Of a stretch of 64,000 bases of DNA, positions 23,096 to 62,402 are shown piece after piece. The position numbers and the translations under genes were made by a program. Every line of letters starts with the position of its first letter. The stretch's first letter is position 1. The DNA is from Escherichia coli (lineage in GTDB: Bacteria > Pseudomonadota > Gammaproteobacteria > Enterobacterales > Enterobacteriaceae): assembly GCF_044324875.1 (NCBI RefSeq), contig NZ_CP172185.1, one strand, 5' to 3'. The notes beneath the pieces are model-generated. The model was not told the origin of the DNA. It searched no databases and saw nothing but the letters and a program-made list of their open reading frames with translations.

Positions 23096-24100
23096 ATGAA
23101 AGTAATTGTAAATAATTTTTTTGATGGTATTTTGAAAAGAGGAATACCGATCTATACTTCTGAACTTGTGCAAAAGTTAAGAGACAATAATGTTCAGGTT
23201 ATTTATGTTGCATGTCCAAAAGCATTCCATAAGCTGCCTTCATGGTTTCTGAATGTTCTTTTTATAATAGTAGAGCAGCTTTTAATACCAATTATGGGTA
23301 TATTTTATAGAACTAAGTATAATATATATCCCTATAATAGTAGTTCCATCATTGACTTGTTATTAGGTAAGGCAATTGTTATAATTCATGACTTCATTAG
23401 TCTTAAGAAAAATAAACGAAATCTTGCTGCCATTTATGTGAAAGTCTGTATTTATTTTTCATCTTTTTTAGCAAAGAAAGTAATATTTATTTCTCAAAGC
23501 ACTCAGCGAGTATCTAAGAGAATATCGCTATTTAAGTGTATAGAATCTATCCTGCTCCCAAATCCATTTTTCTCATTTGAGAAAATTGCTAATGTTACCG
23601 AAATAAAAGATCTTGGATATTTACTTCTAGTTTCAGGTTTAGGGGATAATAAGGATCTAGGCACAGCTCTGGACTATTATTTTTCAATCCCAAGGGAAGA
23701 AAGAATACCATTAAAAATATTAGGTTGTGGGAATGGTATTAGCAAGGTTAACGACTTAATTGATGGGCGGGATACAGATAAAGAAATTGAAATTATTGGT
23801 TTTGTTTCTTTAGAGGAAGTCGTCAAACTATATTGTAATTCTAAAATTGTTTGGGCTCATTCGCTTGCCGAGGGGTATGGAAGGACTTTAGCTGAAGCAA
23901 AACTCACATGCAAAAATGTTATATGCACACGGATCTCTGCTTTCCGCGAACAAAAGGATTCGAATATTTTCTTTTATACTTACTATTCTGAGTATTATGA
24001 AGTCTATTCATACTTGGTAGATAATTCACCCAGTGTCGAAAGGAAAGCTCTGCATGAACATATTTTATTTGAAAATGAATTGAGAAAGATTTATGAGTAA
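23096..24100 (+). CDS. O-antigen glycosyltransferase (GT4-like, probable mannosyltransferase)
   Basis: ORF 23063..24100; start taken at ATG 23096 (MKVIVNNFF...). AT-rich with Lys/Ile/Asn-rich codon usage; C-terminal EGYGRTLAEAKLTCKNVICT resembles the GT4 E-x7-E region. Confidence 0.7.
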   Translation: MKVIVNNFFDGILKRGIPIYTSELVQKLRDNNVQVIYVACPKAFHKLPSWFLNVLFIIVEQLLIPIMGIFYRTKYNIYPYNSSSIIDLLLGKAIVIIHDFISLKKNKRNLAAIYVKVCIYFSSFLAKKVIFISQSTQRVSKRISLFKCIESILLPNPFFSFEKIANVTEIKDLGYLLLVSGLGDNKDLGTALDYYFSIPREERIPLKILGCGNGISKVNDLIDGRDTDKEIEIIGFVSLEEVVKLYCNSKIVWAHSLAEGYGRTLAEAKLTCKNVICTRISAFREQKDSNIFFYTYYSEYYEVYSYLVDNSPSVERKALHEHILFENELRKIYE

Positions 24101-25295
24101 TATTGATATAAATAAGAAACAGATATTAGTTTTGACTCCACGGTTCCCGTTTCCTGTCATTGGTGGGGATCGATTACGTATCTATAAGATCTGTAAAGAA
24201 CTGTCTAAGCATTATGATCTTACGTTGCTGAGTCTGTGTGATAAACGCGAAGAGCTCAACTATGAATATGATCGTGAAGTTTTTAGTAGTGTTCACAGAG
24301 TATATCTTTCAAAGAAAAAATCTATTTTAAATGTCATATTCTCTTTGTTTTCAAATACTCCCCTACAGATTGGGTATTATAAATCTAAAGAATTTGAAGA
24401 TAAACTTAAGCAGTTATTACCTGAACATTCTGCAACTCTTTCACATTTGATAAGGGTTGGTGATTATGTGAAAGAGAATAAAGATATAAATTTTTTAGAG
24501 ATGACCGATGCCATTTCACTTAATTATAAACGAGTAAAGGAAAAAGCATCTTTATTGAGTTTAAAAACATTTGTATATTCTTTTGAACAAAAAAGACTCG
24601 AACGATATGAGCGAACTATAAATAACAAGTTCAGCTTGACTACTTTGGTATCACAGGTTGACTCCGATTATTTATATCCAGACCGTCCGAATAATGTATT
24701 AGTCTGTGGAAATGGTGTTGATGCCGTTAGCTTACCTTTTTCAGAACGAAAAATAGCTAAAGATAAAAAGATAACCCTTGTATTTATAGGTAATTTATAT
24801 TCTTTGCAAAATATGGATGGTGTGAGATGGTTCACCAAGGAAGTTTTACCATTTCTTAACAAGCATGGTAATTTTGAATTTAAGGTCATCGGACGTATTA
24901 CAGATAAAGATAAGAGTTGGTTAGAAAGCCAGCCTGGCGTTGTTGTCACAGGTGAAGTTGATAGCATAACTTATGCAGCAGCTGATGGGCATATTGGTGT
25001 ATGTCCTATTAGATTAGGGGCAGGTATCCAAAATAAGGTACTTGAATATATGGCGTTGGGATTACCTTGTATCTCTTCTACTGTAGGCTTTGAAGGCTTG
25101 GGAGCAGAGGAGGGTAAGGAGATTTATGTTGCCAATACAAAAGAAGAATATTTACGTGTATTAAATTATTTTATAACAAATCTGGATAAATATACCGAAA
25201 CAGCATTAGTTGCGAAAAAGTTTATCGGTGAGAATTTTTCATGGGAAGCTAAATTGAGCCCATATATCCAGAAAATTAAGGAGTCTGTTAAATAA
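24093..25295 (+). CDS. O-antigen glycosyltransferase (GT4 family)
   Basis: 400-aa ORF; GT4-like C-terminal region ([38 protein letters not shown]); low GC. Confidence 0.75.
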
Positions 25296-25296
25296 A

Positions 25297-26712
25297 ATGA
25301 TTATCCCAATTATTATGGCCGGTGGTTCTGGTACTCGCTTATGGCCTCTTTCGCGTTCGTTATACCCGAAACAATTTTTATCATTGATTAATGAAAATAG
25401 TTTGCTCCAGGAAACGTTGAAGAGACTTGATGGATTAAATTGTTTGCCTCCTGTCATTGTTAGCAATAATGAGCATAGATTTATTGTTGCTGAACAATTG
25501 CGACAGTTCGGTGTGGATGACTTCCAGATTATTCTAGAACCTGTAGGTAGAAATACTGCGCCCGCCGTTGCGCTGGCTGCTCTAAAGTCTCTAGAACTCC
25601 ATGGCGATCATCATATGCTGGTTCTTGCTGCTGACCATGCTATTCAGGATATTGAAGCCTTCCATGCAGCTGTTTTAGCTGCAGAACAAGAGTCCGTTGA
25701 CAATAAGTTAGTGACTTTTGGCATCGTCCCGACCAAACCTGAAACTGGGTATGGCTATATTAAAAAGGGCGAACAAGTTAAAAACTCTGTATTTAAAGTA
25801 AATTCTTTCGTCGAAAAACCTGATTTAGAAACGGCTAAAAATTATCTCGAACAAAAATGCTATTTGTGGAATAGTGGTATGTTCATGTTCAAGGCGAGCG
25901 TATATTTAGATGAATTGAAAAAATTTCGCCCTGATATTTTAGCAGCGTGTAAAGAGTCGCTTTCCAGTGCTAGTACTGATCTAGATTTTATCAGATTAAA
26001 TTCTGATGTCTTTGCAGAATGTCCCGATGAGTCAATTGATTATGCGGTAATGGAAAAAACTCAGGATTGTGTAGTTATTCCACTTGATGCTGACTGGAGT
26101 GACATCGGTTCATGGACATCACTTTGGGAAATATCAGAGAAAGATGAACATGAAAACGTATCGCATGGCGATGTAATTAACTATAACAGCAGGAACAACT
26201 ACATTTACTCTGAAGGTTCACTGATCAGCACTGTAGGAGTTAATAACCTTATTATAGTTCAAACTAAAGATGCGCTCCTGGTAGCACAGCAAGACAACGT
26301 ACAAGACATAAAGAAGATTGTCGAAATTCTTAAAAAGCAAAAACGTAGCGAACATATATCCCATCGCGAAGTCTATCGTCCTTGGGGACGTTATGATTCT
26401 GTAGAACGTGGCGACCGTTATCAGGTAAAGCGTATTACCGTTAAGCCTGGTGAATGTCTCTCAACACAAATGCATCATCATCGAGCTGAGCATTGGGTGG
26501 TTGTCGCTGGTACTGCAAAGGTGACTTGCGGCGAACGCACTTTTTTCGTCACTGAAAATGAGTCAACTTTCATACCAATTGGCACAGTTCATACCTTGGA
26601 AAATCCAGGAAAGATACCATTAGAAGTAATTGAGATTCAGTCGGGTGTATATCTAGGTGATGATGATATTGTGCGCCTAAGTGATAAATATGGTCGTGTT
26701 GAGGATAAATAA
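25297..26712 (+). CDS. manC: Mannose-1-phosphate guanylyltransferase (O-antigen copy)
   Basis: 471-aa ORF; [13 protein letters not shown] motif and cupin C-terminus, highly similar to cpsB in protein but AT-rich at the nucleotide level. Confidence 0.9.
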
Positions 26713-26716
26713 TTAT

Positions 26717-28138
26717 ATGAATATTACCAATGATGTAATTAAAAATAGCGGAATTGCATTTGGTACAAGTGGTGCTCGTGGATTAGTGAAAGATTTTACA
26801 CCCAACGTGTGTGCTGCATTCACTTATGCTTTTATCGATGTAATGATGAAGGATTTTTCTTTTAAAGAGGTTGCGCTCGCAATAGATAATCGCCCAAGCA
26901 GCTATGCTATGGCACAAGCTTGCGCAGCAGCATTGTTGGAATGTAGTATTAAACCTATTTACTACGGTGTAATTCCAACTCCAGCTTTGGCAAATCAAGC
27001 GATTGCCGATGGGATTCCTGCAATAATGGTTACTGGAAGTCATATTCCATTTGATAGAAATGGTTTGAAATTCTATCGTCCAGACGGGGAAATTTCAAAA
27101 GAAAATGAGAACAGCATTATACATGCTGAAAAAGAGTATCCTGATGTAACTGTATTGCCAGAATTACAATGTTCAAAGCGTGCCGCTGATACTTATATCG
27201 AGAGAAACACTTCAATTTTTTCAAATATATTTAAAGGTAAACGTATCGGGATTTATGAACATTCAAGTGCGGGACGGGATCTTTATTCAGAAATATTCAG
27301 TAAGCTTGGTGCTGAAGTTGTAAGTATTGGTAGAAGTGATGAGTTTGTGCCTATTGATACTGAAGCAGTATCAAAAGAAGATGAAGAAAAAGCTTTACAC
27401 TGGTCATCTGAGTATGACCTCGATATGATTTTTTCTACCGATGGTGATGGCGATCGTCCTTTGGTTGCTGACGAAAATGGCGTTTGGTTACGGGGTGATA
27501 TATTAGGACTATTTTGCTCAAAGGCAATGAATATTGAAGCGGTAGCTGTACCTGTAAGTTGTAATACGGTTATTCAGACTTGCGGGTGGTTTAATCATGT
27601 AACGCTGACTAAAATTGGTTCACCATACGTCATTTCAGCGTTTGATTCTCTGAATAATAGTTTTGATAGGGTTGCAGGGTTTGAGGCTAACGGTGGGTAT
27701 CTTTTAGGTAGCGATGTAAATTATAACAGCGGTATGATTAAAGCGCTTCCAACAAGAGATGCTGTTTTGCCTGCTTTAATGGTACTGGCACTGGCTATAA
27801 AAAATAATGTGACTATTTCAAAACTCTTGGCGGAGTTGCCACCACGATTTACCTACTCAAATAGAGTTCAAAATTTTGCAACAAGCAAAAGTAAAAGCAT
27901 TATCGCGTCAGCTCAAGAAAATCCTCAAGAATTTATCGAAAGAATAGGCTTTGTCGATCTTCATGTACAATCGGTGGATACAATTGACGGGTTAAGATTG
28001 ACACTAAGTGATGGTTCAATAATCCATTTGCGACCGTCAGGCAACGCACCTGAATTGCGATGCTATGCAGAAGCAGATAACATAATAAAAGCTGAAAAAT
28101 TAGTGTTAGAAGTTTTGCATAAAGTTACTCTTTTGTAA
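26717..28138 (+). CDS. manB: Phosphohexomutase of the PGM/PMM superfamily (O-antigen phosphomannomutase, ManB-type role)
   Basis: ORF 26681..28138; start taken at ATG ~26717 ([22 protein letters not shown]...). [11 protein letters not shown] phosphoserine-loop-like motif and DGDGDRP metal-binding motif. Start codon uncertain by a few codons. Confidence 0.75.
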
Positions 28139-28321
28139 AAAAATATAAACTTTTTTCTACTCTTGAGCGGTTTGTCATTTAACCGCTCAGTAATAGATTG
28201 TTTATAAATTGTTTATATTTAGCATTGGTGTTTTTATTTGCGTTCATCCCGAATAAGAGATTGTAAAATTAACTGTTTCTTATTTTTCAAATGAGTTACT
28301 TCACTAGTAAAGCTAATTACT

Positions 28322-29653
28322 ATGCATAAGCAATATTATTCATTATTGTGCAATAAAATACAGTTTAAACATCTGGCTATATATTTTTCTGTATTTCTTT
28401 CACTATCCTCATGTTTCTTGTGGGGAGGGGCGGATACATTTGTATCGCAAGTGTATATTGATATTTTAGCCACTATATCTACAGCGCTATTAGTTGTTTT
28501 GATGTTCTATTATTATATTAATAGAGTTCGCTATTTATCACTAACCTTACTTTTTGCATTCGTTTTTTCTTTGATTATTGGTTTGCCATCGATTTATCTT
28601 TACTATTTTAAAAACGCAAATCATGGGTTTGAAATAATTTGTATCTGGGGGATGTTGATCAATTCCATCCTTTACTTGCAAACAACAGAGACTGTCATAA
28701 AAGAAGAAAAAAGATATTTAACTAGTTTATTTTATATTTTGTTTTCTATTGTTGCACTGTGTCAATTATACAAAATATTAATTTATCTTATGTTTATATT
28801 GAATTCAGGAGAAGGGCATTTAGCAATTTATACTGAAAGCGAAGAATTGCTATCCCAAGTTCCATTTTTTATTCGTGCTATTAGTGGTTTTGCAGTTGTA
28901 ATGTCATTGTCCACTTTTTATTTTAAAACACCGACCTACATTAAAGTTATTGCATTTGTTTTACTTGCATCTGATTTAGCTATTGGAATACGTAATAAGT
29001 TTTTCTTTTCAGTGATTTGTATTTTTATACTATATATGTACTCTAATGAGTATAGAGTAAGAAATTTATTTAAGCAACTCTCAAAACCAATATTTCTCAT
29101 CGCCGGTTTTTTATGCTTCTCGATGGTATCGTATTTCCGTGAAGGGTACCAAATCGATTTTATGATTTATATTGGCATTGTTTTAGATTCGCTATCCTCT
29201 ACTCTTGGGGGGATGCAGAATTTGTTTGATATGCAATCATCAGGATGGGATCAACTTCATCCCGCTGTGGTATTCACACAAGTATTACCGCTAAGCGGTC
29301 TTGGTTTTCTTGATGATCAACAAATCGCAAAAGATTTTTCAATAATTGTTTTAGGTGATGTATCCTCTGGTATTGCGTTGTCATCTTCAGGATTGTTAGA
29401 GTCATCGTTGCTGAGTCTAAACTTGGGAGTGATTATTTATTTACTGTATTTATCAGGGGTGATGCTTTTTATTAAATGGGGACTAAATAATCAACGGATA
29501 ATAATAAACTTTGTTGCCATCTCCATGATATCTGGATTTTTTTATGCTGTTCGTGGTGAACTGATTTTGCCATTGGCTTTTCTTCTAAAATCATTGCCGA
29601 TTGTTCTTATATCTCCATTACTTGTTAAAAATAAAATTTATCATGGTCAGTAA
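28322..29653 (+). CDS. wzy: O-antigen polymerase Wzy (polytopic membrane protein)
   Basis: 443-aa very hydrophobic, low-GC ORF with many predicted TM segments; location in O-antigen cluster. Assignment is by context. Confidence 0.65.
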   Translation: MHKQYYSLLCNKIQFKHLAIYFSVFLSLSSCFLWGGADTFVSQVYIDILATISTALLVVLMFYYYINRVRYLSLTLLFAFVFSLIIGLPSIYLYYFKNANHGFEIICIWGMLINSILYLQTTETVIKEEKRYLTSLFYILFSIVALCQLYKILIYLMFILNSGEGHLAIYTESEELLSQVPFFIRAISGFAVVMSLSTFYFKTPTYIKVIAFVLLASDLAIGIRNKFFFSVICIFILYMYSNEYRVRNLFKQLSKPIFLIAGFLCFSMVSYFREGYQIDFMIYIGIVLDSLSSTLGGMQNLFDMQSSGWDQLHPAVVFTQVLPLSGLGFLDDQQIAKDFSIIVLGDVSSGIALSSSGLLESSLLSLNLGVIIYLLYLSGVMLFIKWGLNNQRIIINFVAISMISGFFYAVRGELILPLAFLLKSLPIVLISPLLVKNKIYHGQ

Positions 29654-29694
29654 GTGGTTTATTTTTCGACCAGGATCTCACCAGTAGGCATGAC

Positions 29695-30930
29695 ATGATC
29701 AAAGAAATTTTCTCCGATGGCATTTTTTCGCTATTTAATAAAATATGTTACTTCGGTTTTAAAACACTTGCAATAATTCTGATTACTCGTTCCTTAGGAG
29801 AAGATGTAGGCGGAGAGTTCATTTTTTTAGTTGGTTTTCTCGAAGTCCTTCGGGTGGTTACTGATTTTGGTGTGGATCTGTTTGTTATAAAAAAATATAA
29901 TGATTCTACAGATAAAATAAAACTATTAAATGTAACGTTTGCACAAAAAATTCTTTCTGGAGTAATTGTTTTACTACTGTTTTGTTTGTATTCTTTTGTT
30001 CAGGGTTATCAATATAATGTCTATATTCCTATTGTGTTAGCCTTACCTGTTGCTTTATTTTTTAATTTCTCAAATAGCTATTTTCAATCTCTCAATTCCA
30101 ATAAATCTCTCACGTTTCCGATCGCAATTGCATCTATTGCAACGTGTACGATCTTCGCTATTCAGTATTTTTTAAACGTTAAATTTAACGCATGGGATTA
30201 CCTGTGTGTTGAACTATTATTCGTATCGCTGGTTACACTAAAACTATTCGTTAGTGTCAAGTTTAGGTTTATTAGAACGTCAGCTTTTGATGTGCTAATG
30301 TCAATTCTTTCTTTATATAAATATACATTAAGTATAGGTCTTACAGCTGTTGTTGTAATTATTTATAGCCGTATAGATAATTTTTATCTCAAGACATTTG
30401 CCCCAGGGGATCTTGCAGCATATGGCCAGATATTTAGGATGGTTGATCCACTGGTTATGGTTTCTTCTGTATTTTCTACAGTTGCCTATGCAAGATTTTG
30501 CCGAATTAACTTACAAGAAAAAAATGCTTTTACTAAGGTGTTTCAGTTCCTGTTATGTATTGTGGCATATGGCGTGCTGAGTTCATTAGTTTATTTCTTT
30601 ATAATAAAATACCTGGGTCATTTTGTATTGATTTCTAATGTTAATAATGATTTCTTGATAATGATGTTCTTGATTGTTGCATGTGTGAAATGTATCAATG
30701 GTGGTACAACTGCAATAATTCAGTCACAGGGGTTTTATAAAGTGGGTTTGTATGTTTCGTATGTTTGCATTTTGACATCGATACCAACTATGTATTTCTT
30801 AATAATGAAGTACGGTGTTAAAGGTGCTGCTATGACGATTCTGCTTGTAGAGTGTATTAGTTTCATATTACTTCTCTGCAGCTTTTTTATGATAAAAAAG
30901 ATGCGTCCTAAAAAAACATTCGAAATGTAA
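29695..30930 (+). CDS. wzx: O-antigen flippase Wzx
   Basis: 411-aa polytopic membrane ORF with the N-terminal pattern typical of polysaccharide-biosynthesis flippases; last gene before gnd. Confidence 0.7.
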   Translation: MIKEIFSDGIFSLFNKICYFGFKTLAIILITRSLGEDVGGEFIFLVGFLEVLRVVTDFGVDLFVIKKYNDSTDKIKLLNVTFAQKILSGVIVLLLFCLYSFVQGYQYNVYIPIVLALPVALFFNFSNSYFQSLNSNKSLTFPIAIASIATCTIFAIQYFLNVKFNAWDYLCVELLFVSLVTLKLFVSVKFRFIRTSAFDVLMSILSLYKYTLSIGLTAVVVIIYSRIDNFYLKTFAPGDLAAYGQIFRMVDPLVMVSSVFSTVAYARFCRINLQEKNAFTKVFQFLLCIVAYGVLSSLVYFFIIKYLGHFVLISNVNNDFLIMMFLIVACVKCINGGTTAIIQSQGFYKVGLYVSYVCILTSIPTMYFLIMKYGVKGAAMTILLVECISFILLLCSFFMIKKMRPKKTFEM

Positions 30931-35082: not shown

Positions 35083-35115
35083 GCCGGATGCGATGCTGGC
35101 GCATCTTATCCAGCC
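35083..35115. repeat. REP-type palindromic unit adjacent to the IS insertion site
   Basis: gccggatgcgatgctggcgcatcttatccagcc is an imperfect palindrome, the same REP subtype as at 2437-2470. Confidence 0.55.
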
Positions 35116-35134
35116 AAAATGTGCAGAGCGAATA

Positions 35135-36421
<1,287 letters not shown>

Positions 36422-36489
36422 CGATAAGCTTGCGCATCGGGCAATGGCTACGGATGCGACTACAACATCGCATCCGGTCAGTCCGCAAC

Positions 36490-43523: not shown

Positions 43524-43571
43524 TTTCTTATTCCTCTTTAAACCTGTCTGAACCGTTATCAACCGCGCAAT

Positions 43572-43606
43572 AAAAAAGCCCCCGGAAGGTGATCTTCCGG
43601 GGGCTT
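43572..43606 (-). terminator. his operon attenuator terminator
   Basis: Minus strand reads agaaagcccccggaagatcaccttccgggggcttttttatt: a GC-rich hairpin plus U-run between hisL and hisG. Confidence 0.85.
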
Positions 43607-43667
43607 TCTCATGCGTTCATGCACCACTGGAAGATCTGAATGTCTTCCAGCACACATCGCCTGAAAG

Positions 43668-43718
43668 ACTAGTCAGGATGATGGTGATGATGGTGGTGTT
43701 TAAATTGAACGCGTGTCA
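43668..43718 (-). CDS. hisL: his operon leader peptide
   Basis: Minus-strand ORF ATGACACGCGTTCAATTTAAACACCACCATCATCACCATCATCCTGACTAG encodes MTRVQFKHHHHHHHPD with seven consecutive His codons. Confidence 0.92.
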
Positions 43719-44001
43719 TAAAAGTCTCTGTGAATGTTTATTCAACTGATGTCTTTTAACCTAAACCACTTTCACGTTAGAAAGCAAGGGCTTTTTTATA
43801 TATTTTATGGCGATGGATTTGTTTAATGAATGAGCGGGGAAAGGAGGGGGCTAAGAGGACTGACCTCTAAGCTGACGGCACCAAAAATAGCGAAGCCTGG
43901 ATTTTCGTCTCACTGACAATATCTTGATCTACAAACTAATTAATAAATAGTTAATTAACGCCCATCATTGTACAATGAGCTGTACAAAAGAGGAGATTGA
44001 C

Positions 44002-44253
44002 ATGCGTACAATTAGCTACAGCGAAGCGCGTCAGAATTTGTCGGCAACAATGATGAAAGCCGTTGAAGATCATGCCCCGATCCTTATTACTCGTCAGAAT
44101 GGAGAGGCTTGTGTTCTGATGTCACTCGAAGAATACAACTCGCTGGAAGAGACGGCTTATCTGCTGCGCTCCCCCGCTAACGCCCGGAGATTGATGGACT
44201 CAATCGATAGCCTGAAATCAGGCAAAGGAACAGAAAAGGACATTATTGAGTGA
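44002..44253 (+). CDS. yefM: Type II antitoxin YefM (Phd family)
   Basis: 83-aa product [58 protein letters not shown]...; immediately followed by yoeB with a 4-nt overlap. Confidence 0.9.
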
Positions 44254-44504
44254 AACTAATCTGGTCTGAGGAATCATGGGATGATTATCTGTACTGGCAG
44301 GAAACAGATAAGCGAATTGTTAAAAAGATCAATGAACTTATCAAAGATACCCGCAGAACGCCATTTGAAGGTAAGGGGAAGCCAGAACCCCTGAAACATA
44401 ATTTGTCAGGCTTCTGGTCCCGACGCATTACAGAGGAGCACCGTCTGGTATACGCGGTTACCGACGATTCACTGCTCATTGCAGCATGTCGTTATCATTA
44501 TTGA
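44250..44504 (+). CDS. yoeB: Type II toxin YoeB (RelE-family mRNA interferase)
   Basis: 84-aa [36 protein letters not shown]...; RelE/YoeB fold signature; paired with yefM. Confidence 0.9.
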
Positions 44505-44586
44505 ACAGATTCATTCATAGAATGAATTGTCAGTTTTGATACGCTAGCGTAGCCTTATAGATCTAAGGTGTATCAGGAGATAACGG

Positions 44587-45411
44587 ATGAAAAAGGTCGC
44601 AATTGTCGGGTTAGGGTGGTTAGGCATGCCGCTGGCGATGTCACTTTCAGCGCGAGGCTGGCAAGTTACCGGGAGTAAAACCACACAAGATGGTGTCGAA
44701 GCGGCCCGAATGAGTGGGATTGATAGCTATCTGCTTCGCATGGAGCCTGAGTTAGTTTGCGATTCTGACGATCTGGATGCCCTGATGGATGCCGATGCGC
44801 TGGTCATTACGCTTCCGGCACGTCGTAGCGGCCCCGGCGATGAGTTCTATTTACAAGCGGTACAAGAGTTAGTAGATAGCGCGCTGGCCCATCGTATTCC
44901 CCGCATTATTTTTACCAGCTCAACATCTGTCTATGGCGACGCGCAAGGCACGGTGAAAGAAACCACCCCGCGTAATCCGGTAACCAACAGTGGACGAGTA
45001 TTAGAAGAACTCGAAGACTGGCTGCACAATTTACCCGGAACTTCGGTCGATATTCTACGTCTTGCGGGTCTGGTCGGACCGGGACGTCATCCCGGACGTT
45101 TCTTTGCCGGAAAAACCGCCCCTGATGGTGAACATGGTGTTAATTTAGTCCATTTAGAAGATGTTATTGGCGCTATCACTCTGTTGTTACAGGCACCTAA
45201 AGGCGGACACATCTATAATATATGTGCGCCAGCTCACCCTGCGCGTAATGTTTTCTATCCGCAGATGGCCCGTTTACTGGGGCTGGAACCTCCGCAGTTC
45301 AGAAATAGTCTGGACAGCGGCAAAGGTAAGATTATTGATGGCAGTCGGATTTGTAATGAACTGGGATTTGAATACCAGTATCCCGATCCGCTGGTAATGC
45401 CGCTGGAGTAA
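44587..45411 (+). CDS. yeeZ: NAD(P)-binding Rossmann-fold protein YeeZ (epimerase/dehydratase-like)
   Basis: 274-aa ORF; N-terminal MKKVAIVGLGWLGMPLA glycine-rich motif. Confidence 0.85.
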   Translation: MKKVAIVGLGWLGMPLAMSLSARGWQVTGSKTTQDGVEAARMSGIDSYLLRMEPELVCDSDDLDALMDADALVITLPARRSGPGDEFYLQAVQELVDSALAHRIPRIIFTSSTSVYGDAQGTVKETTPRNPVTNSGRVLEELEDWLHNLPGTSVDILRLAGLVGPGRHPGRFFAGKTAPDGEHGVNLVHLEDVIGAITLLLQAPKGGHIYNICAPAHPARNVFYPQMARLLGLEPPQFRNSLDSGKGKIIDGSRICNELGFEYQYPDPLVMPLE

Positions 45412-46386: not shown

Positions 46387-46473
46387 AGAAAAATTATTAT
46401 GACAAGCCTCTCATTCTCTTGTCATTTCCCCCCCATTTAGGCACAATGCGCCGCTGTCAAAAAATGACTAAAA

Positions 46474-46505
46474 ACCGACGTTTCATCAGCGTCGGTTATT
46501 TTTTG
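46474..46505 (+). terminator. Rho-independent terminator downstream of yeeY
   Basis: accgacg-tttcatcag-cgtcggt hairpin followed by a T-run. Confidence 0.6.
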
Positions 46506-46652
46506 CTTCAAACCAATCATTCATACCAAGAGGCCGGGCTTCGTACCGGATAGATATTTACTAAAAATCGACAGTTGTTGTCGCTGAGGAATCCAAAAAA
46601 ATGGGGCAATTTTTTGCTTACGCGACGGTTATCACCGTAAAGGAGAATGACC

Positions 46653-55231: not shown

Positions 55232-55582
55232 TCAGGTCCGCGTAATGGGGCAGGCGGTAAAGCGCATCATTTCACCCAGCGTACGGGTAACCTGGCTAAG
55301 TGCATATTCAATCGCAGAAACATCACCAGTCAGCACTACGGCACCGGTAAAACGATCAAGAAAACCGATCTCTACAGCGCCTGATTTTGTGGCGATATCA
55401 CATGCGATGATAGATGCTTCGCTGGGGGTAATTGTCAGAATGCCAATAGCAGAAACGGTGTCTGGTAAACCCAATTTCTTAAACAGATCCTTCCCTGGAT
55501 TGGCGATGACATGTGCCAGCGTGACCTGCTTACCAGGGACATATTCCTGAATCATCCGTTCAGTTGTGTGCTGAGTTGTCAT
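55232..55582 (-). CDS. pduU: BMC shell protein PduU (circularly permuted BMC domain)
   Basis: ORF 55232..55606; start taken at the Met overlapping the pduT stop (TAATG), giving 116 aa ...[32 protein letters not shown]... Confidence 0.85.
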
Positions 55583-56136
55583 TATCCCTCCACCATCTGA
55601 CGCCACATGGCTTCATGTGGACGGGCAATCACCGACCGATAGACCAACAAACCTTTTTCTCCCGCACGCTCGCTGGCGACAGAGACCGCGTTATTAACAT
55701 CTGAAATATCGCCAGCAACCACCATGTAGCATTTACCGCCAATGCCAAAAGCCATATGCACGCGAACAAGAATGACATTCGCAGCTTTGACAGCACAATC
55801 GGCAGCGTCAATGCAGGCGGCGACACTCCAGGTTTCGACTACGCCGACAGCCCGGTGCTGTTCAACTTGGTTCAGTCCGCTGATTGCAGAAAGGATGCTG
55901 GGATGAATATTCGGCAGGACAAGACTGTCGACCAGCATTTCACCAGCAAGGGAAGCACCGCTGTTGATGGCCTGTTGCACCGCGCCCACATCGCCACCGA
56001 GCATCAGCAGAAATTTTCCGGGGCATAGCGTTTTGCTGACCAGTAACTCAACGTTGGCGCTTTTCAGCATGGCGTCGCCGGTTTCCATCCCTTTCGCGAT
56101 ACTGCTAAGTTCTAAAATACCTACCGCTTTCGACAT
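55582..56136 (-). CDS. pduT: BMC shell protein PduT (tandem BMC domains)
   Basis: 184-aa ORF with two BMC-like repeats. Confidence 0.85.
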
Positions 56137-56138
56137 CG

Positions 56139-57482
56139 TTAACCTCTCACAAGCGTAATCGCGTTTTCTGTCACATCGCTGACCATGCCATCAATACTGG
56201 CATGAATGGGGGCACCTAATGTGCCGTGTGGAATTTGACCTACACATTGCCCATGAACGACGCGATCGCCTTTTTGTACACACGCAATTGCGCTGGCACC
56301 GATGTGCTGGCGTAACAATAACGTCACTTTTTCGGTCTGAGGCACCTGTTCAGACAATGGCGCATCCTGATACCACGGGGTTAAGCCCAGTCTGGTTACC
56401 AGCCGTTTTACGGGAATCAGTCGATAATTTGCCATGGGATCTGCAGGATTTAAGGTACCTTCGTAACGGAGATTTTGTGCGCGTAATTCCTGCTTAAGCA
56501 GGCGGTTTATGCGCATTGGTGAAATTCCTACCGGACAGGCGACGCTGGCGCAGACGTTGCACTCCGAACAGGTGAGCGCCGTCAGTAACAGTTGTGGCGT
56601 AGCGAGCTGTTGGTAGTTAACCGCACGTACTAATAAATGGGGTGCCAGTTCGTGACCGATTAAATGACGTGGGCAGAGATCGGTACACAAGCGGCATTGC
56701 TCACAAACAGTTTTCGCGACGGCAAGTACGCTGCGGTCATTCTGCATTCGACATTGGATCAGTGAATGAGAGTTGGGTAAAACCAGCAAGCCGCCAGTGG
56801 TTTTGCTGACTGGTGTGTCGAGCGATGTGATCAAACTGCCCATCATCGGTCCGCCATTGATAAAACCAGGAGCATCCACTGTTGCGCCGCCCGCCAGCGC
56901 CAGGACTTCACGTAAAGACATGCCGATGGGGACGGTTACCGTTATTGGTTTCGCCACTGCACCATTAACGGTGAGTGTGCGGCGCGTCACTGGATACTGT
57001 TGCTCGACGGCTCTGGCAATATTAAGTACGGTTTGAACATTATTGACCACCACACCGACGCTAACGGGTAATGCAGCGGGTGGAACGCGGCGACCAGTTG
57101 CCATCCAGATGGTCAGCACTTCGTCTCCTGCGGGGTAAACATCGGGCAAAATATGCAGGCGGATATCCGGTGGTAACAGTGGTGTGAGTGCGTTTATTGC
57201 CAGTTGATATTTCTCTTTCAGCGCGATGATTCCGCTGCTGGCCCCGGTGGCTTTCATCGCATAGTGAACACCGCGAAGCAGGCGGCTGGCTTGCTGCGCC
57301 ATTAACTGTTGATCCACTTTCAACATGGGTTCGCATTCCGCCGCATTCACCAGGAAAGTGTCAACACGCGCTTGTAGCTTAATATGGGTTGGAAAACCTG
57401 CGCCGCCAGCACCCACGACACCAGCTGCCTGTACTCGCTCGCGGATGGTCTGGTCGTCGCAGGAGGTTAACTCGACGTTCAT
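56139..57482 (-). CDS. pduS: Cobalamin reductase PduS (RnfC-like flavoprotein with two 4Fe-4S motifs)
   Basis: 447-aa ORF; Cys clusters [12 protein letters not shown] and [13 protein letters not shown]; NADH/FMN-binding region. Confidence 0.88.
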
Positions 57483-58591
57483 AACAACTCCTCGAGCAGT
57501 TCTGCAATAGCGGTGGCATCAGCCGCACGCGGGTTGGTACGCAACGTTGCATCCGCCAGTGCCGCCTGAACCATATCTGGTATGCGTATTGACCATTCTG
57601 CTTTTTTTTCTTTCAGCACATTGGTAAGAGTCGGTAGCTTACAGGTTGTTTTAAGCTGTTCAATATGTTGAATAAGTGTATTCAGGCTGGCGGTGTCATT
57701 GGCGTTGTCCGGGCATAAATGGCACGTTTTCGCCAGCCGGGCGTAGCGTTTGGCAGCGCGCGGATCGCCAGCATTAAAGCGGATAACCGCCGTGAGCAGG
57801 AGCGCATTCGCCAGGCCGTGTGGCAGATGAAACTGTCCGCCGAGTTGATGAGCAATTGCATGGTTTAATCCCAGTCCAGCCTGGCTAAAGGCCATTCCTG
57901 CAAGTGTCGATGCATTATGCATTTTGCCACGGGTAGCGAGACAATCGCCTTTCTTCACTGCAGTGGGCAGGTATTGAAAAACAATTTGCACGGCTTTTTC
58001 GACCAGTGCATCCGTGAAGTCGCTGGCGCGGGGAGAAACATAAGCTTCAAGCGCATGGGTTAAAACATCCATCCCGGTATTGGCCGTTATCGCCGGTGGC
58101 ACGCTGACGACCAAAGATGGATCAAGGATCGCGATATCCGGATAAAGTGCATTATCGAAAAGGGGATATTTAATCCCTTTCTCAGGATCGCTGATGACAC
58201 AAGCACTGGTCACTTCGGAACCGGTACCGCTGGTGGTGGGAATGGCTACGCAGGTTTCAATTTCAATGCCACACTGGCGACCGAACCAGACAATTGCTTT
58301 TGCGGCGTCCAGGGCAGAACCGCCGCCAAAACCGATAACTACATCCGGGCGTAAAGTCTGCATTTGCGCAATGCCTTTCACCACGGTCTGGATAGTTGGG
58401 TCGGGCGTTATTTCGCTAAAAATACTGAGACGATTACTGTCGGGCAGCGCCTGATGCAACGTGTCAATAAGTGGTGAGCGTGCCAGAAAGGCATCGCAAA
58501 TAATCCAGATGTGTCTATGAGAGAAACGGCTAAGTACCTTGAGACTTCCTGGTCCGCTGTATAAACGCGTCTGCAGTGAAAAAGTATTCAT
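57479..58591 (-). CDS. pduQ: 1-propanol dehydrogenase PduQ (iron-containing alcohol dehydrogenase)
   Basis: 370-aa ORF; Fe-ADH family motifs (GGGSALDAAKA, His-rich metal site). Confidence 0.88.
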   Translation of the reverse strand: MNTFSLQTRLYSGPGSLKVLSRFSHRHIWIICDAFLARSPLIDTLHQALPDSNRLSIFSEITPDPTIQTVVKGIAQMQTLRPDVVIGFGGGSALDAAKAIVWFGRQCGIEIETCVAIPTTSGTGSEVTSACVISDPEKGIKYPLFDNALYPDIAILDPSLVVSVPPAITANTGMDVLTHALEAYVSPRASDFTDALVEKAVQIVFQYLPTAVKKGDCLATRGKMHNASTLAGMAFSQAGLGLNHAIAHQLGGQFHLPHGLANALLLTAVIRFNAGDPRAAKRYARLAKTCHLCPDNANDTASLNTLIQHIEQLKTTCKLPTLTNVLKEKKAEWSIRIPDMVQAALADATLRTNPRAADATAIAELLEELL

Positions 58592-58601
58592 TTCCGTTTC
58601 T

Positions 58602-59987
58602 CTAGCGAATTGAAAAGCCGCTGGTTAACACGCAGCGTCGTGAGCGGGCAAAAGTCCGTGCTGACGTTGTCCCTTCTCCGGTCGGTGTTGCAATGGTAAA
58701 GGTCGTAAAGCCTTCGCCGCCGACGCCAATACCCGCCCAGGAGGGGCCGTTTTTGACAAAGATTGAGGTTTGCATAACGCGTGCGGCAAGGTTGAGCCGT
58801 GAGACGTTCTGCGAGTGCATAATTGCCGTGTGGTGCAAGCCGTCTTCCACTTTCAGCGCCAGGGTGAGAGCGCTATCAAAATCGTTGACCTTCACAATGG
58901 GCAGCATTGGCATCAGTTGTTCACAAGTAACCCAACTATCATTGGCGTCGACAACAGCAATCAGTAGGCGCGGCGCTTTTGCGGGCAAAGGGAGGCCTGC
59001 CGCTTCCAGCAAGGCTGATGGGCTTTTCCCAACCAGTTTTTTGTTGGCGCTACCGTCTGGCAGGCAAATTGCACGCAATTTCTCCGTTTGCTCATAGTTA
59101 AGAAGAAGCGCGCCAAAACTTTGCATCTGCTGAATTAAATAATCTGCCACTGATGCCACGACAATCAGGCTTTTTTCAGCAATACACGGCAGGTTGTAAT
59201 CAAATGAAGCGCCGTTGATGATGTCCTCGGCGGCTTTCACAATATCCGCCGTTTCATCGACGATGCACGGAGGGTTACCCGCTCCGGCACCAATCACTTT
59301 CTTGCCACTTTTCATTCCCATGGCGACGATCCCCGGACCGCCGGTAATCGCCAGAACGCTGATTTTAGGGTGCGCCATCATCTGTTCGGTAGCAGCAAAG
59401 GTCGGTTCAGATACGGTAACGATCAGGTTATGAATGCCACTACAACGAAACGCGATGTCTTCGATTGTGGTAATCAGTTTTAACGAAACGTATTTGGCTC
59501 CCGGGTGTGGACTGAAGTAGACGCTATTACCTGCTGCCAGCATGCTGATGCTGTTGTTAATGATGGTTTCCGTGGGGTTGGTGCTTGGCGTGACCGAGCC
59601 AATAACCCCAAACGGGGAGTATTCAAACAAAACCATGCCACCATCACCGGTTAGTGCAGTGGTGGTTAAATCTTCAATTCCTGGCGTGTTATCGAGTGCC
59701 GCTTTGTTTTTTAGGTACTTATCTTCTTTATTTCCCATCCCCGTTTCTTTGGCGCTTTCTTCTGCCAGTTCGGTCAGGCGGGGTATTAATTCTTCGCGAA
59801 TGGCGCTGATAATGGCGCTACGGGTTTTAAGCGGGCACTGTTGAAAGCGTAAAAAGGCCTGGTGTGCTGCGCAGACCGCTTCATCAACAGTCTGGAAAAT
59901 AGCGTTTCTTTGCGCTCGTTGCGTAGCGGGGGCAAGCTGCTCACGCAGAATATTGCGGATCAGTGTTTCTAATTCAGAGTTATTCAT
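58602..59987 (-). CDS. pduP: CoA-acylating propionaldehyde dehydrogenase PduP
   Basis: 461-aa ORF of the aldehyde dehydrogenase superfamily with catalytic Cys region (DYNLPCIAEK). Confidence 0.88.
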   Translation of the reverse strand: MNNSELETLIRNILREQLAPATQRAQRNAIFQTVDEAVCAAHQAFLRFQQCPLKTRSAIISAIREELIPRLTELAEESAKETGMGNKEDKYLKNKAALDNTPGIEDLTTTALTGDGGMVLFEYSPFGVIGSVTPSTNPTETIINNSISMLAAGNSVYFSPHPGAKYVSLKLITTIEDIAFRCSGIHNLIVTVSEPTFAATEQMMAHPKISVLAITGGPGIVAMGMKSGKKVIGAGAGNPPCIVDETADIVKAAEDIINGASFDYNLPCIAEKSLIVVASVADYLIQQMQSFGALLLNYEQTEKLRAICLPDGSANKKLVGKSPSALLEAAGLPLPAKAPRLLIAVVDANDSWVTCEQLMPMLPIVKVNDFDSALTLALKVEDGLHHTAIMHSQNVSRLNLAARVMQTSIFVKNGPSWAGIGVGGEGFTTFTIATPTGEGTTSARTFARSRRCVLTSGFSIR

Positions 59988-60991
59988 TGGTTTACTCCCA
60001 CGTTAATTGCCGCCATTGCGCTTTGGGCAATATCCATGTCTTGTTCAACGCTACCACCGCTGATGCCAAGCCCCCCGAGCAATATTCCGTCACGCCAGAG
60101 GGGGAAGCCGCCACCAAAGGTGACGACTTTGCCTTGCATATGGCTTTCGAGCCCATAAAGCGGCGCGCCGGGTTGCACGGTATCAGCAAGCTTGTGGGTT
60201 GCTGTTTTCATCGCCACGGCGGTCCAGGCTTTTTTCGGTGCCAGTTCACTGCTGACCAACAGGGCATCAGGCATCCGCCAGGTAACACTTTCTGTTCCGT
60301 TGGCATCAACAATGCTGATGACAACGGGAATATGCAGTTCATCCGCGCGCATTGCCGCACTACGAATGAGCTGGTGAAGATCCTGAAATGTGAGCGGCAT
60401 TGTGCGTTCCTTCAATGCTGGTGTGTGGTTGGCTTCGTGATAACGTTTTGTGATTTCCTGAATCATCAGGTTTTGATGAGCAACGTTGTCTTCCACTCGG
60501 GCGAGGGCATACAGGCAATCGGAAAGTCGGTTGATATAGTGCAGCAAAACATTCCGGACGTTGGTTTCCGTTGTCAGTTCAACCAGACGTCTTTCAGCCC
60601 GTCGAGCCACTGTGCGGGCGAAATGCATGTGGCTTGCGGCTTCAGATCGACCAGGCAGAATGAAGCTGTGAACTGGGGGGACGGCGTTCATTGCGCTATC
60701 GATCGCGTTTTCCAGCGCAGCAATTTCTTCCGTACTGATGTAACGCTGCTTCGCTGACGGCTGTTCGCTTTCACTCGCGAGTTCGGCGCTAAACCAAAAT
60801 ATCTGTTGTTGAATGGCTTCCAGTAAGATGCGATGGCTTTCGATGGCGGTGGCGCAATAACACAGACTGAGTGTCGCGTTCAGTTCATCCAGCGTGCCAT
60901 AGGTTTCGACACGTAGATGAGTTTTGCTGACGCGCTGTCCGGTAAATAAAGACGTACTTCCTGAATCACCTGTTCGGGTATAAATTGCCAT
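59984..60991 (-). CDS. pduO: ATP:cob(I)alamin adenosyltransferase PduO (N-terminal PduO-type ATR fused to C-terminal DUF336-like domain)
   Basis: 335-aa ORF; N-terminus MAIYTRTGDSGSTSLFTGQRVSKTHLRVETYGTLDELNA matches PduO-type adenosyltransferases. Confidence 0.88.
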   Translation of the reverse strand: MAIYTRTGDSGSTSLFTGQRVSKTHLRVETYGTLDELNATLSLCYCATAIESHRILLEAIQQQIFWFSAELASESEQPSAKQRYISTEEIAALENAIDSAMNAVPPVHSFILPGRSEAASHMHFARTVARRAERRLVELTTETNVRNVLLHYINRLSDCLYALARVEDNVAHQNLMIQEITKRYHEANHTPALKERTMPLTFQDLHQLIRSAAMRADELHIPVVISIVDANGTESVTWRMPDALLVSSELAPKKAWTAVAMKTATHKLADTVQPGAPLYGLESHMQGKVVTFGGGFPLWRDGILLGGLGISGGSVEQDMDIAQSAMAAINVGVNQ

Positions 60992-61002
60992 CTTTCAGCT
61001 CC

Positions 61003-61278
61003 TTAGCGCGAAAGCGTATCGACAATGCCGACCACTGCCAGGTCGATGGCCTCATTAGGGCCGGAAAACACATGTCTGGCGCTGGAACCACTGCTGAGGA
61101 GTACCAACTCACCAACGCCTGCGCCGACTGAATCAACGGCAACTTCGTCGCCGGTTAATGGCGTGAGAGGCAGTTCGCCGTCAGCACTGACCCGGCGAAC
61201 CAGCAGCAGTTTTTTCCCGATCAGAGATGGTGATTTTTGCGTGGATACTACCGCGCCAGTGACTCGAGCCAGATGCAT
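61003..61278 (-). CDS. pduN: BMC vertex (pentamer) protein PduN (EutN/CcmL family)
   Basis: 91-aa [20 protein letters not shown]... Confidence 0.85.
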
Positions 61279-61281
61279 AGG

Positions 61282-61773
61282 TTACTCCTGCCTGATTAAC
61301 TGAATATTTCGGGTAATTGCCGCTTCACGAGCCAGTGCGGTCACACAACATTTCCGCTGTAACACCAATATTCCCGAGCTTAACTGTGCGATATCGACAT
61401 AACTTAAAAGTCGATCATGATGTAGGTAGATCGGTTGCCCTTGTTCGTCGCACCAGCTTAGCGGTAGACGGGCGAGAGTCTTCAATTCAATGGCGTTCAG
61501 GAAATGACGCTGCAACGACAATTGAATGTGCATTCCCCAGGCTAACGCTTCGTGTATCTGGATTGCTGCTCGATCTGACGTTTCGTTCTCCGCAAGTTGT
61601 CGCAGCAGCGGCAGATCGACATATCGGATTTGTAATGACGCATACTGATGAACGCTCTCTTGAACACTGGCGTCTCGCAGTTGAAAAACAGTCAGCACGA
61701 GTGTTTTTCCCGCACGTTGTTTAAGGCGAAAAACCACTTCGTCAACAATACGTTGCATCAGTATGTTATTCAT
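61282..61773 (-). CDS. pduM: Microcompartment protein PduM
   Basis: 163-aa ORF in the canonical position between pduL and pduN. Confidence 0.78.
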   Translation of the reverse strand: MNNILMQRIVDEVVFRLKQRAGKTLVLTVFQLRDASVQESVHQYASLQIRYVDLPLLRQLAENETSDRAAIQIHEALAWGMHIQLSLQRHFLNAIELKTLARLPLSWCDEQGQPIYLHHDRLLSYVDIAQLSSGILVLQRKCCVTALAREAAITRNIQLIRQE

Positions 61774-62402
61774 GGCATTGACACCAGTGTGGCAAAAACG
61801 TCAGGGCTATCAGCCCCTGCGGCGTTGGCCTCATCGGTATCAATATGCATTTCAAGACGCATATCCGGAGAGACGCGAACAGCGACGTTTTCGAATATCA
61901 GTCGTCGCTCATCACCTTCAATGGCAACCGCCACTTTATCGCCATGCGTAACGCCATAAATCAGGGCATCCAGCGGAGACATATGAATATGCCGTTGCGC
62001 GACAATGACGCCAGATGTGATCTCCAGTTCCGCAAATGGACTTATCAAACGAATCCCCGGAGTGCCGCTGAGATCGCCTGACATGCGTAGCGGGGCGGTG
62101 ATCCCTAACGTTCTGGCGTCCGTCCGGGAAATTTCCACCTGACTTGCATTGCGTAGCGGCCCCAACAAGCGAACGTTGTGCAATTTACCTTTTGGTCCCT
62201 CCAGCGTAACAACCTGTTCAGCAGCGAATTGGCCAGGTTGCATTAACGGCTTTTTCTCGCTAATCGGTTGTTCAGGAAAAAGACGCAAATAATCCGCTGT
62301 TGAAAGATGAATATGACGACTGGAAACACCCAGAGGGATAGGGCGCTCACGCATCTCATCCAGAATCTGGCTCACTGTTTCCTGCAAGGTTTGTTTATCC
62401 AC
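61770..62402 (-). CDS. pduL: Phosphate propanoyltransferase PduL
   Basis: 210-aa ORF; PduL/EutD-type phosphotransacylase repeats. Confidence 0.85.
   Translation of the reverse strand: MDKQTLQETVSQILDEMRERPIPLGVSSRHIHLSTADYLRLFPEQPISEKKPLMQPGQFAAEQVVTLEGPKGKLHNVRLLGPLRNASQVEISRTDARTLGITAPLRMSGDLSGTPGIRLISPFAELEITSGVIVAQRHIHMSPLDALIYGVTHGDKVAVAIEGDERRLIFENVAVRVSPDMRLEMHIDTDEANAAGADSPDVFATLVSMP

Follow-up and report, generated by a model that had tools for sequence, protein, structure and literature searches.

Beside the his operon, the window (the whole stretch of Escherichia coli DNA analysed here, 64,000 nucleotides in length) carries two small genes on the + strand that encode the antitoxin YefM and the toxin YoeB. 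The yefM gene occupies 44002-44253, has an ATG start and encodes 83 amino acids plus a stop, its product being an antitoxin of the Phd/YefM family and an autorepressor, while yoeB occupies 44250-44504, has a GTG start and encodes 84 amino acids plus a stop, its product being a ribosome-dependent mRNA endonuclease. Direct reading of the junction (...ATT GAG TGA over GTG AAA) showed that the genes share the four nucleotides GTGA, with the yefM stop codon TGA at 44251-44253 and the yoeB start codon GTG at 44250-44252. The antitoxin gene thus comes first and the toxin gene is adjacent, co-oriented and overlapping, the gene order of a toxin-antitoxin (TA) module, and the sizes and 4-nt overlap that an earlier sequence-only reading had given for the pair were confirmed at these coordinates.

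Comparison of the two products with known structures showed that YefM was 100% identical over its full length to chain A of PDB 2A6Q (E = 2e-49) and YoeB 100% identical over its full length to chain E of the same entry (E = 1e-56), which are the crystallised E. coli proteins. No frameshift or truncation was present in either gene in these full-length alignments, and both are whole. Profile searches scored YefM at 96.8 bits against PF02604 PhdYeFM_antitox (E = 6e-28; profile positions 1-73 of 74; curated cut-off 29.8 bits) and YoeB at 146.3 bits against PF06769 YoeB_toxin (E = 3e-43; profile positions 1-80 of 80; cut-off 27), and the NCBIfam equivalogs NF008499 for YefM (186.6 bits; cut-off 121 bits) and TIGR02116 (Txe/YoeB) for YoeB (132.8 bits; cut-off 51.8 bits) were likewise exceeded. 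A second Pfam match of YoeB, to ParE_toxin, reflects the RelE/ParE superfamily. The YoeB residues Glu46, Arg65, His83 and Tyr84 were all present and were invariant in an alignment of five homologues. The pair therefore combines an antitoxin of the Phd/YefM family with a toxin of the YoeB/Txe family that has the RelE/ParE-superfamily fold and its catalytic residues, and its earlier description as a canonical type II module with a Phd-family antitoxin and a RelE-family toxin was borne out.

The segment 43660-44600 was colinear with yeeZ-yoeB(b4539)-yefM(b2017)-hisL of K-12 MG1655, the window being in the opposite orientation to the K-12 map, and differed from it by 12 substitutions in 941 nt with no indels; the five changes that fell in coding sequence were all synonymous. 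We are thus close to certain that the locus is an intact chromosomal yefM-yoeB type II TA operon of E. coli, located where it normally lies, between yeeZ and hisL. As the earlier reading also held, the system is well known rather than novel: the proteins are the crystallised YefM and YoeB, the region is colinear with b2017/b4539, and this is among the best-characterised type II TA systems, its promoter and operator having been mapped and both crystal structures and complexes with the ribosome being available.

Promoter, operator and start codon of yefM

The operon promoter, pyy, has been described as a TAGTTA box and a TACAAT box joined by a 17-bp linker (PMC7730913). In the window, the same −35 hexamer TAGTTA was read at 43948-43953 (+) and the −10 hexamer TACAAT at 43971-43976 (+), the latter (PMC7730913) inside a perfect 7+7 inverted repeat, TCATTGTACAATGA, at 43965-43978. 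This long palindrome (L) is the primary YefM binding site, and a short palindrome (S), TGTACA at 43981-43986, lies 12 bp from it, centre to centre, around the transcription start; neither palindrome was assigned a strand. Based on the in vivo transcription start of yefM mapped by Kedzierska et al. 2007 (PMC1802561), we inferred that +1 is the G at 43982 (+) by placing the published map, in which the yefM ATG is +21, on the window (PMC1802561, PMC7730913), where the sequence matches that of K-12 save for one base in the L-S spacer.

The palindromic operator anticipated within 43940-44000 was therefore present as L and S, and these are exactly the repeats footprinted in PMC1802561. Although the 64-kb window contains 10 TGTACA hexamers, the only pair spaced 12 bp apart is that of the 43965-43986 operator, so that the locus has the arrangement of an autoregulatory operator, namely a pair of palindromes with TGTACA cores, 12 bp between their centres, overlapping the promoter. 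In an alignment of five cassettes (that of the window and four plasmid-borne copies at 74-86% nucleotide identity), the L core TTGTACAAT was invariant, whereas its flanks diverged, and the S repeat was partly conserved. Two of the changes relative to K-12 fall in the promoter region, at 43962 in the spacer between the −35 and −10 boxes and at 43979 within the 2 bp separating L from S; they leave the hexamers and palindromes untouched and could slightly shift promoter strength or repression. Owing to the weak −35 box (TAGTTA), a simple sigma-70 scan did not pick up pyy; the only matches it gave, on the minus strand within yoeB, occurred at about the chance rate and were disregarded.

The pair had been placed at 43975-44504, of which the end stands, since it is the end of yoeB, and the start does not. 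The codon at 43975 is an in-frame ATG that precedes the true gene start by 27 nt, and an interval beginning there takes in part of the operator. The reading frame is open from this codon and gives a 92-aa product in the list of open reading frames, with the internal ATG at 44002 giving the 83-aa product, and the Pfam score is the same for both forms. We nevertheless give the 92-aa antitoxin virtually no credence. Placed on the window, the published map identifies the ATG at 43975 with the “−7” codon of Kedzierska et al. 2007, which lies upstream of the mapped transcription start at 43982 (PMC1802561), and it was on this ground that the longer form was rejected. The same work found that the yefM start codon is +21, not −7, that the overexpressed protein begins at +21, and that a ribosome binding site lies 6 bp from the ATG (PMC1802561); the window carries the Shine-Dalgarno sequence GAGGAG at 43990-43995 (+), 6 nt ahead of 44002. 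Moreover, the first residue of the Pfam domain is residue 10 of the long version, and yefM genes annotated by RefSeq are 252 nt long. The true start codon of yefM is therefore that at 44002, not 43975.

Presence and absence of the cassette between yeeZ and hisL

The operon is divergent from hisL, as had been claimed, with the pair on the + strand and hisL (MTRVQFKHHHHHHHPD) at 43669-43719 on the − strand; the His leader RF00514 was detected by Rfam at 43570-43693 (−; 131.6 bits), and hisG is also on the − strand. Alignment with the corresponding locus of O157:H7 (L001) showed that the homologous sequence on the left extends to 43857 and that on the right begins at 44510, which delimits a TA-specific cassette of 652 bp at 43858-44509 (+) whose last position is 5 nt after the yoeB stop. 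The TA-less counterpart is a 210-bp filler (L001 1799-2008) with a REP-like element, GCCGGATGCGGCGTGAATGCCTTATCTGGTCTACA. The cassette had a GC content of 44.3%, lower than that of the his operon (55.2%) and that of yeeZ-yeeY (51.6%). Among 5426 complete E. coli genomes, the TA allele was present in 4209 (about 78%) and the filler allele in 1197 (22%), each at a coverage of at least 80%, and hisL, hisG and yeeZ were intact beside the filler. In the passage of PMC7167474 that cites Fiedoruk 2015 and Ramisetty 2016, TA distribution is described as uneven across E. coli phylogroups. One atypical record labelled E. coli, SY3626 (about 90% identity), has neither cassette nor filler and lacks yeeY.

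Homologous cassettes were found on Salmonella IncFII, Citrobacter, E. marmotae, Enterobacter (E. cloacae) and Pantoea plasmids, and the Salmonella, Citrobacter and E. marmotae matches span only 43938-44505 of the window, that is, the promoter, the operator and both genes. Identical (100%) proteins occur in Escherichia whittamii in the same yeeZ/hisL slot, and Pectobacterium has a yefM-yoeB pair at an unrelated chromosomal site. When species-representative genomes were scanned with the operator pattern TCATTGTACAATGANNNGTACA, five loci were returned, of which one was from E. whittamii, three were from Pectobacterium and one was from a Rhodobacteraceae MAG; this set is too small to trace a phylogenetic distribution properly, and the representative of E. 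coli was not among the matches. Given the sharp breakpoints, the low GC content, the allele counts and the homologues on plasmids and at another site, we infer that the cassette is a compact, self-contained, horizontally acquired unit that is mobile and polymorphic in E. coli. Target-site duplications and repeats were sought at the cassette breakpoints and none was evident, and we therefore claim no mechanism of transposition.

To the right of the cassette, no intrinsic terminator downstream of yoeB was detected on the + strand by a terminator scan. When 44490-44590 was folded (z = −2.8), an AU-rich hairpin formed at about 44510-44528 with a short run of U behind it, and 44510-44528 is a near-perfect palindrome, ATTCATTC-ATA-GAATGAAT, just upstream of yeeZ. 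This palindrome occurs in TA-positive and TA-less alleles alike, and the divergent record SY3626 retains it in part; because the TA-less alleles share its DNA, we assigned it to the upstream region of yeeZ and not to the cassette. It may act as a weak terminator hairpin or bind a regulator, for example the adjacent LysR-type YeeY.

Several other features of the window were recorded. An IS110-family element lies at 35105-36445 between wzzB and hisIE, within REP-like DNA, with its transposase open reading frame at 35244-36224 (−), which RefSeq names “IS621 family transposase” and which matches NCBIfam NF033542 (“RNA-guided transposase”) with E = 6e-76; an IS621 copy at exactly the same site was found in only 3 of the 5426 complete genomes, at no more than 98.4% identity. 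We take IS621 to be a REP-targeting bridge-RNA recombinase. The O-antigen cluster at 23063-30930 contains manC, manB-like genes, wzy (28322-29653) and wzx (29695-30930), with a JUMPstart element at 22958-22996. Its wzy-wzx segment was 100% identical to genes annotated as “O17/O44/O73/O77/O106 family” in the best-matching genomes and had matches in 93 complete genomes, of which 92 showed at least 99% identity. Genes of a pdu (propanediol-utilisation) microcompartment would occupy about 55582-62402 (−), downstream of yeeA/tmaR, judging from the colinear annotation of CFSAN061771. Rfam matches above the gathering score were an algC RNA at 13007-13056, upstream of the open reading frame at 13013-14431, two copies of the REP-derived naRNA4 at 17445-17612 in the colanic-acid region, and STnc240 at 46432-46506 between yeeY and plaP.

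Mechanism and biological role of the module

In the mechanism that we extend to this operon from published work, the weak sigma-70 promoter (TAGTTA, 17 bp, TACAAT) would give rise to a bicistronic mRNA, and YefM dimers would first occupy L, over the −10 box, and then S, over the start site. YoeB would act as co-repressor, such that YefM together with YoeB shuts RNA polymerase out of pyy and the operon represses itself; binding of YefM to L and then S, strengthening of repression by YoeB and occlusion of RNA polymerase at pyy have been reported (PMC1802561, PMC7730913). The C-terminus of YefM would wrap YoeB in a YefM2-YoeB complex and keep it inactive, whereas depletion of YefM would free YoeB to enter the ribosomal A site, cut the mRNA after the second nucleotide of the A-site codon and stop translation. 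In this reaction Glu46 would serve as general base and His83 as general acid, and Arg65 and Tyr84 would stabilise the transition state, in line with the A-site cleavage and the roles of these four residues described in PMC3814384. Release of YoeB has been reported upon Lon overproduction and, in a lon-dependent manner, at 42 °C (PMC7167474). The cited papers established this mechanism by experiment with proteins of the same sequence, and we apply it to the present strain, in which toxicity, neutralisation, lability to Lon and expression would by extrapolation be as for the identical K-12 proteins (PMC7167474, PMC1802561).

The physiological role of chromosomal yefM-yoeB is still disputed, and the operon had no effect on growth or fitness under conditions in which it was activated (PMC7167474). 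The sequence-only reading had considered the pair relevant as a stabilising addiction module next to a region with an IS insertion and a swapped O-antigen cassette. On such an account, loss of the TA together with the his, IS or O-antigen neighbourhood would let persisting YoeB kill the cell, and the region would thereby be kept in place. Type II modules do stabilise plasmids and some genomic islands, reportedly including SGI1, and close homologues of yefM-yoeB reside on large plasmids; activation of YoeB driven by Lon can, in addition, be lethal (PMC7167474). Such a role would, however, entail tight linkage of the TA to the region it protects and few or no TA-less alleles, whereas 1197 of the 5426 genomes are without the cassette, having lost it or never had it, and retain intact his and yeeZ flanks. 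Strain 3347558 carries the TA-less allele, yet its wzx/wzy genes are 100% identical to those of the window, and CFSAN061771, whose TA locus matches that of the window at 99.9% identity, carries an O83 cluster and lacks an IS between wzzB and hisIE, so that TA and O-antigen are not co-inherited. The IS621 copy is about 7.5 kb and the O-antigen genes about 13 kb from the TA, with the whole his operon, itself under selection, in between. Since post-segregational killing acts only on loss of the TA, the module would, from this established mechanism, counter-select only those deletions that remove the TA itself and would not prevent homologous replacement of a neighbour, and O-antigen swaps, being replacements of that kind, escape counter-selection by a TA 13 kb away. 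The report of no fitness effect (PMC7167474) also speaks against stabilisation. We regard this role as very improbable; it is not supported by the allele distribution, and the module should not be taken to protect the O-antigen genes, the IS or the his region nearby.

A different account of the role, compatible with the proposed molecular mechanism, is that the module is a purely selfish and functionless passenger, maintained only by addiction and horizontal transfer, with no benefit to the host and no effect on its neighbours. A GC content below that of the flanks, the presence/absence polymorphism with sharp breakpoints, relatives on plasmids and at another chromosomal site in Pectobacterium, and the finding of neither fitness advantage nor disadvantage (PMC7167474) would all fit this account. 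Both proteins are fully conserved, however, with only synonymous changes relative to K-12, and their 100% identity in a separate species, E. whittamii, in the same slot is better explained by purifying selection or by very recent transfer than by neutral decay; heat stress, moreover, activates YoeB (PMC7167474). A passenger without function is hence possible, and we lean against it. If the chromosomal operon brings any benefit, we would expect it to be a conditional, stress-linked arrest of translation, not the guarding of neighbours.

We also considered the yeeZ-hisL slot as a long-lived two-allele polymorphism (652-bp TA or 210-bp REP filler) in which the allele could alter expression of the neighbouring genes, a proposal that we hold to be unlikely. 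The TA allele sets an autorepressed promoter about 160 bp from, and back-to-back with, the his promoter, and the 82-nt gap between yoeB and yeeZ is without a convincing terminator, for which reason read-through from pyy into yeeZ-yeeY, or coupling to his by supercoiling, is possible. Were the proposal true, pyy transcription could enter yeeZ-yeeY or couple to his via local supercoiling. Returning to the locus as an intact and standard yefM-yoeB operon, the outcome of the analysis is a set of exact promoter and operator coordinates and a corrected start codon, and little beyond correct annotation, and the split of about 78% TA-positive to 22% REP filler is a handy natural control for tests of chromosomal TA function.

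Comparison with known systems

The closest known system is yefM-yoeB of K-12 (b2017/b4539; PDB 2A6Q, 4V8X), which has the same proteins, gene order, 4-nt overlap and GTG start of yoeB, as well as identical promoter hexamers, L and S palindromes and position between yeeZ and hisL, and from which the window operon differs by nucleotide substitutions only (12 in 941 nt). Four plasmid cassettes (Salmonella pIncFII.1, E. marmotae pEM148, E. cloacae pM12X01451 and Pantoea pEuc2) share the 252-nt and 255-nt genes and their overlap, with 80-95% protein identity, a conserved L core and invariant catalytic residues. They differ in having 74-86% nucleotide identity, in an S repeat that is degenerate in some of them (TGAACA, AGTACA, TGTATT), and in sitting on replicons, where a role in post-segregational killing is obvious. 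On pM12X01451, a conjugative IncF plasmid, an IS110-family transposase gene is followed after 97 bp by the yefM-yoeB homologue (region L007 1966-3542); the presence of an IS110-family neighbour both there and near the TA of the window may be a coincidence.

Axe-Txe of the Enterococcus faecium plasmid pRUM is a homologous Phd/YefM-YoeB/Txe pair with the same −10 box and the same logic of L and S repeats with TGTACA cores (PMC7730913). It is plasmid-borne in a Gram-positive host, and the L repeat of its pat promoter lies in the promoter spacer instead of over the −10 box, which is why repression of pat is weaker (PMC7730913). More distantly, RelBE and the RelE-fold toxins YafQ and HigB have in common with YoeB the microbial RNase fold and cleavage of mRNA in the A site (PMC3814384, PMC6821326). 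YoeB and RelE nevertheless share only about 15% identity, YoeB retains the full Glu/His acid-base pair and, unlike RelE, sits on the ribosome as a dimer that touches both ribosomal subunits (PMC3814384), and its antitoxin has the Phd/YefM fold, not that of RelB.
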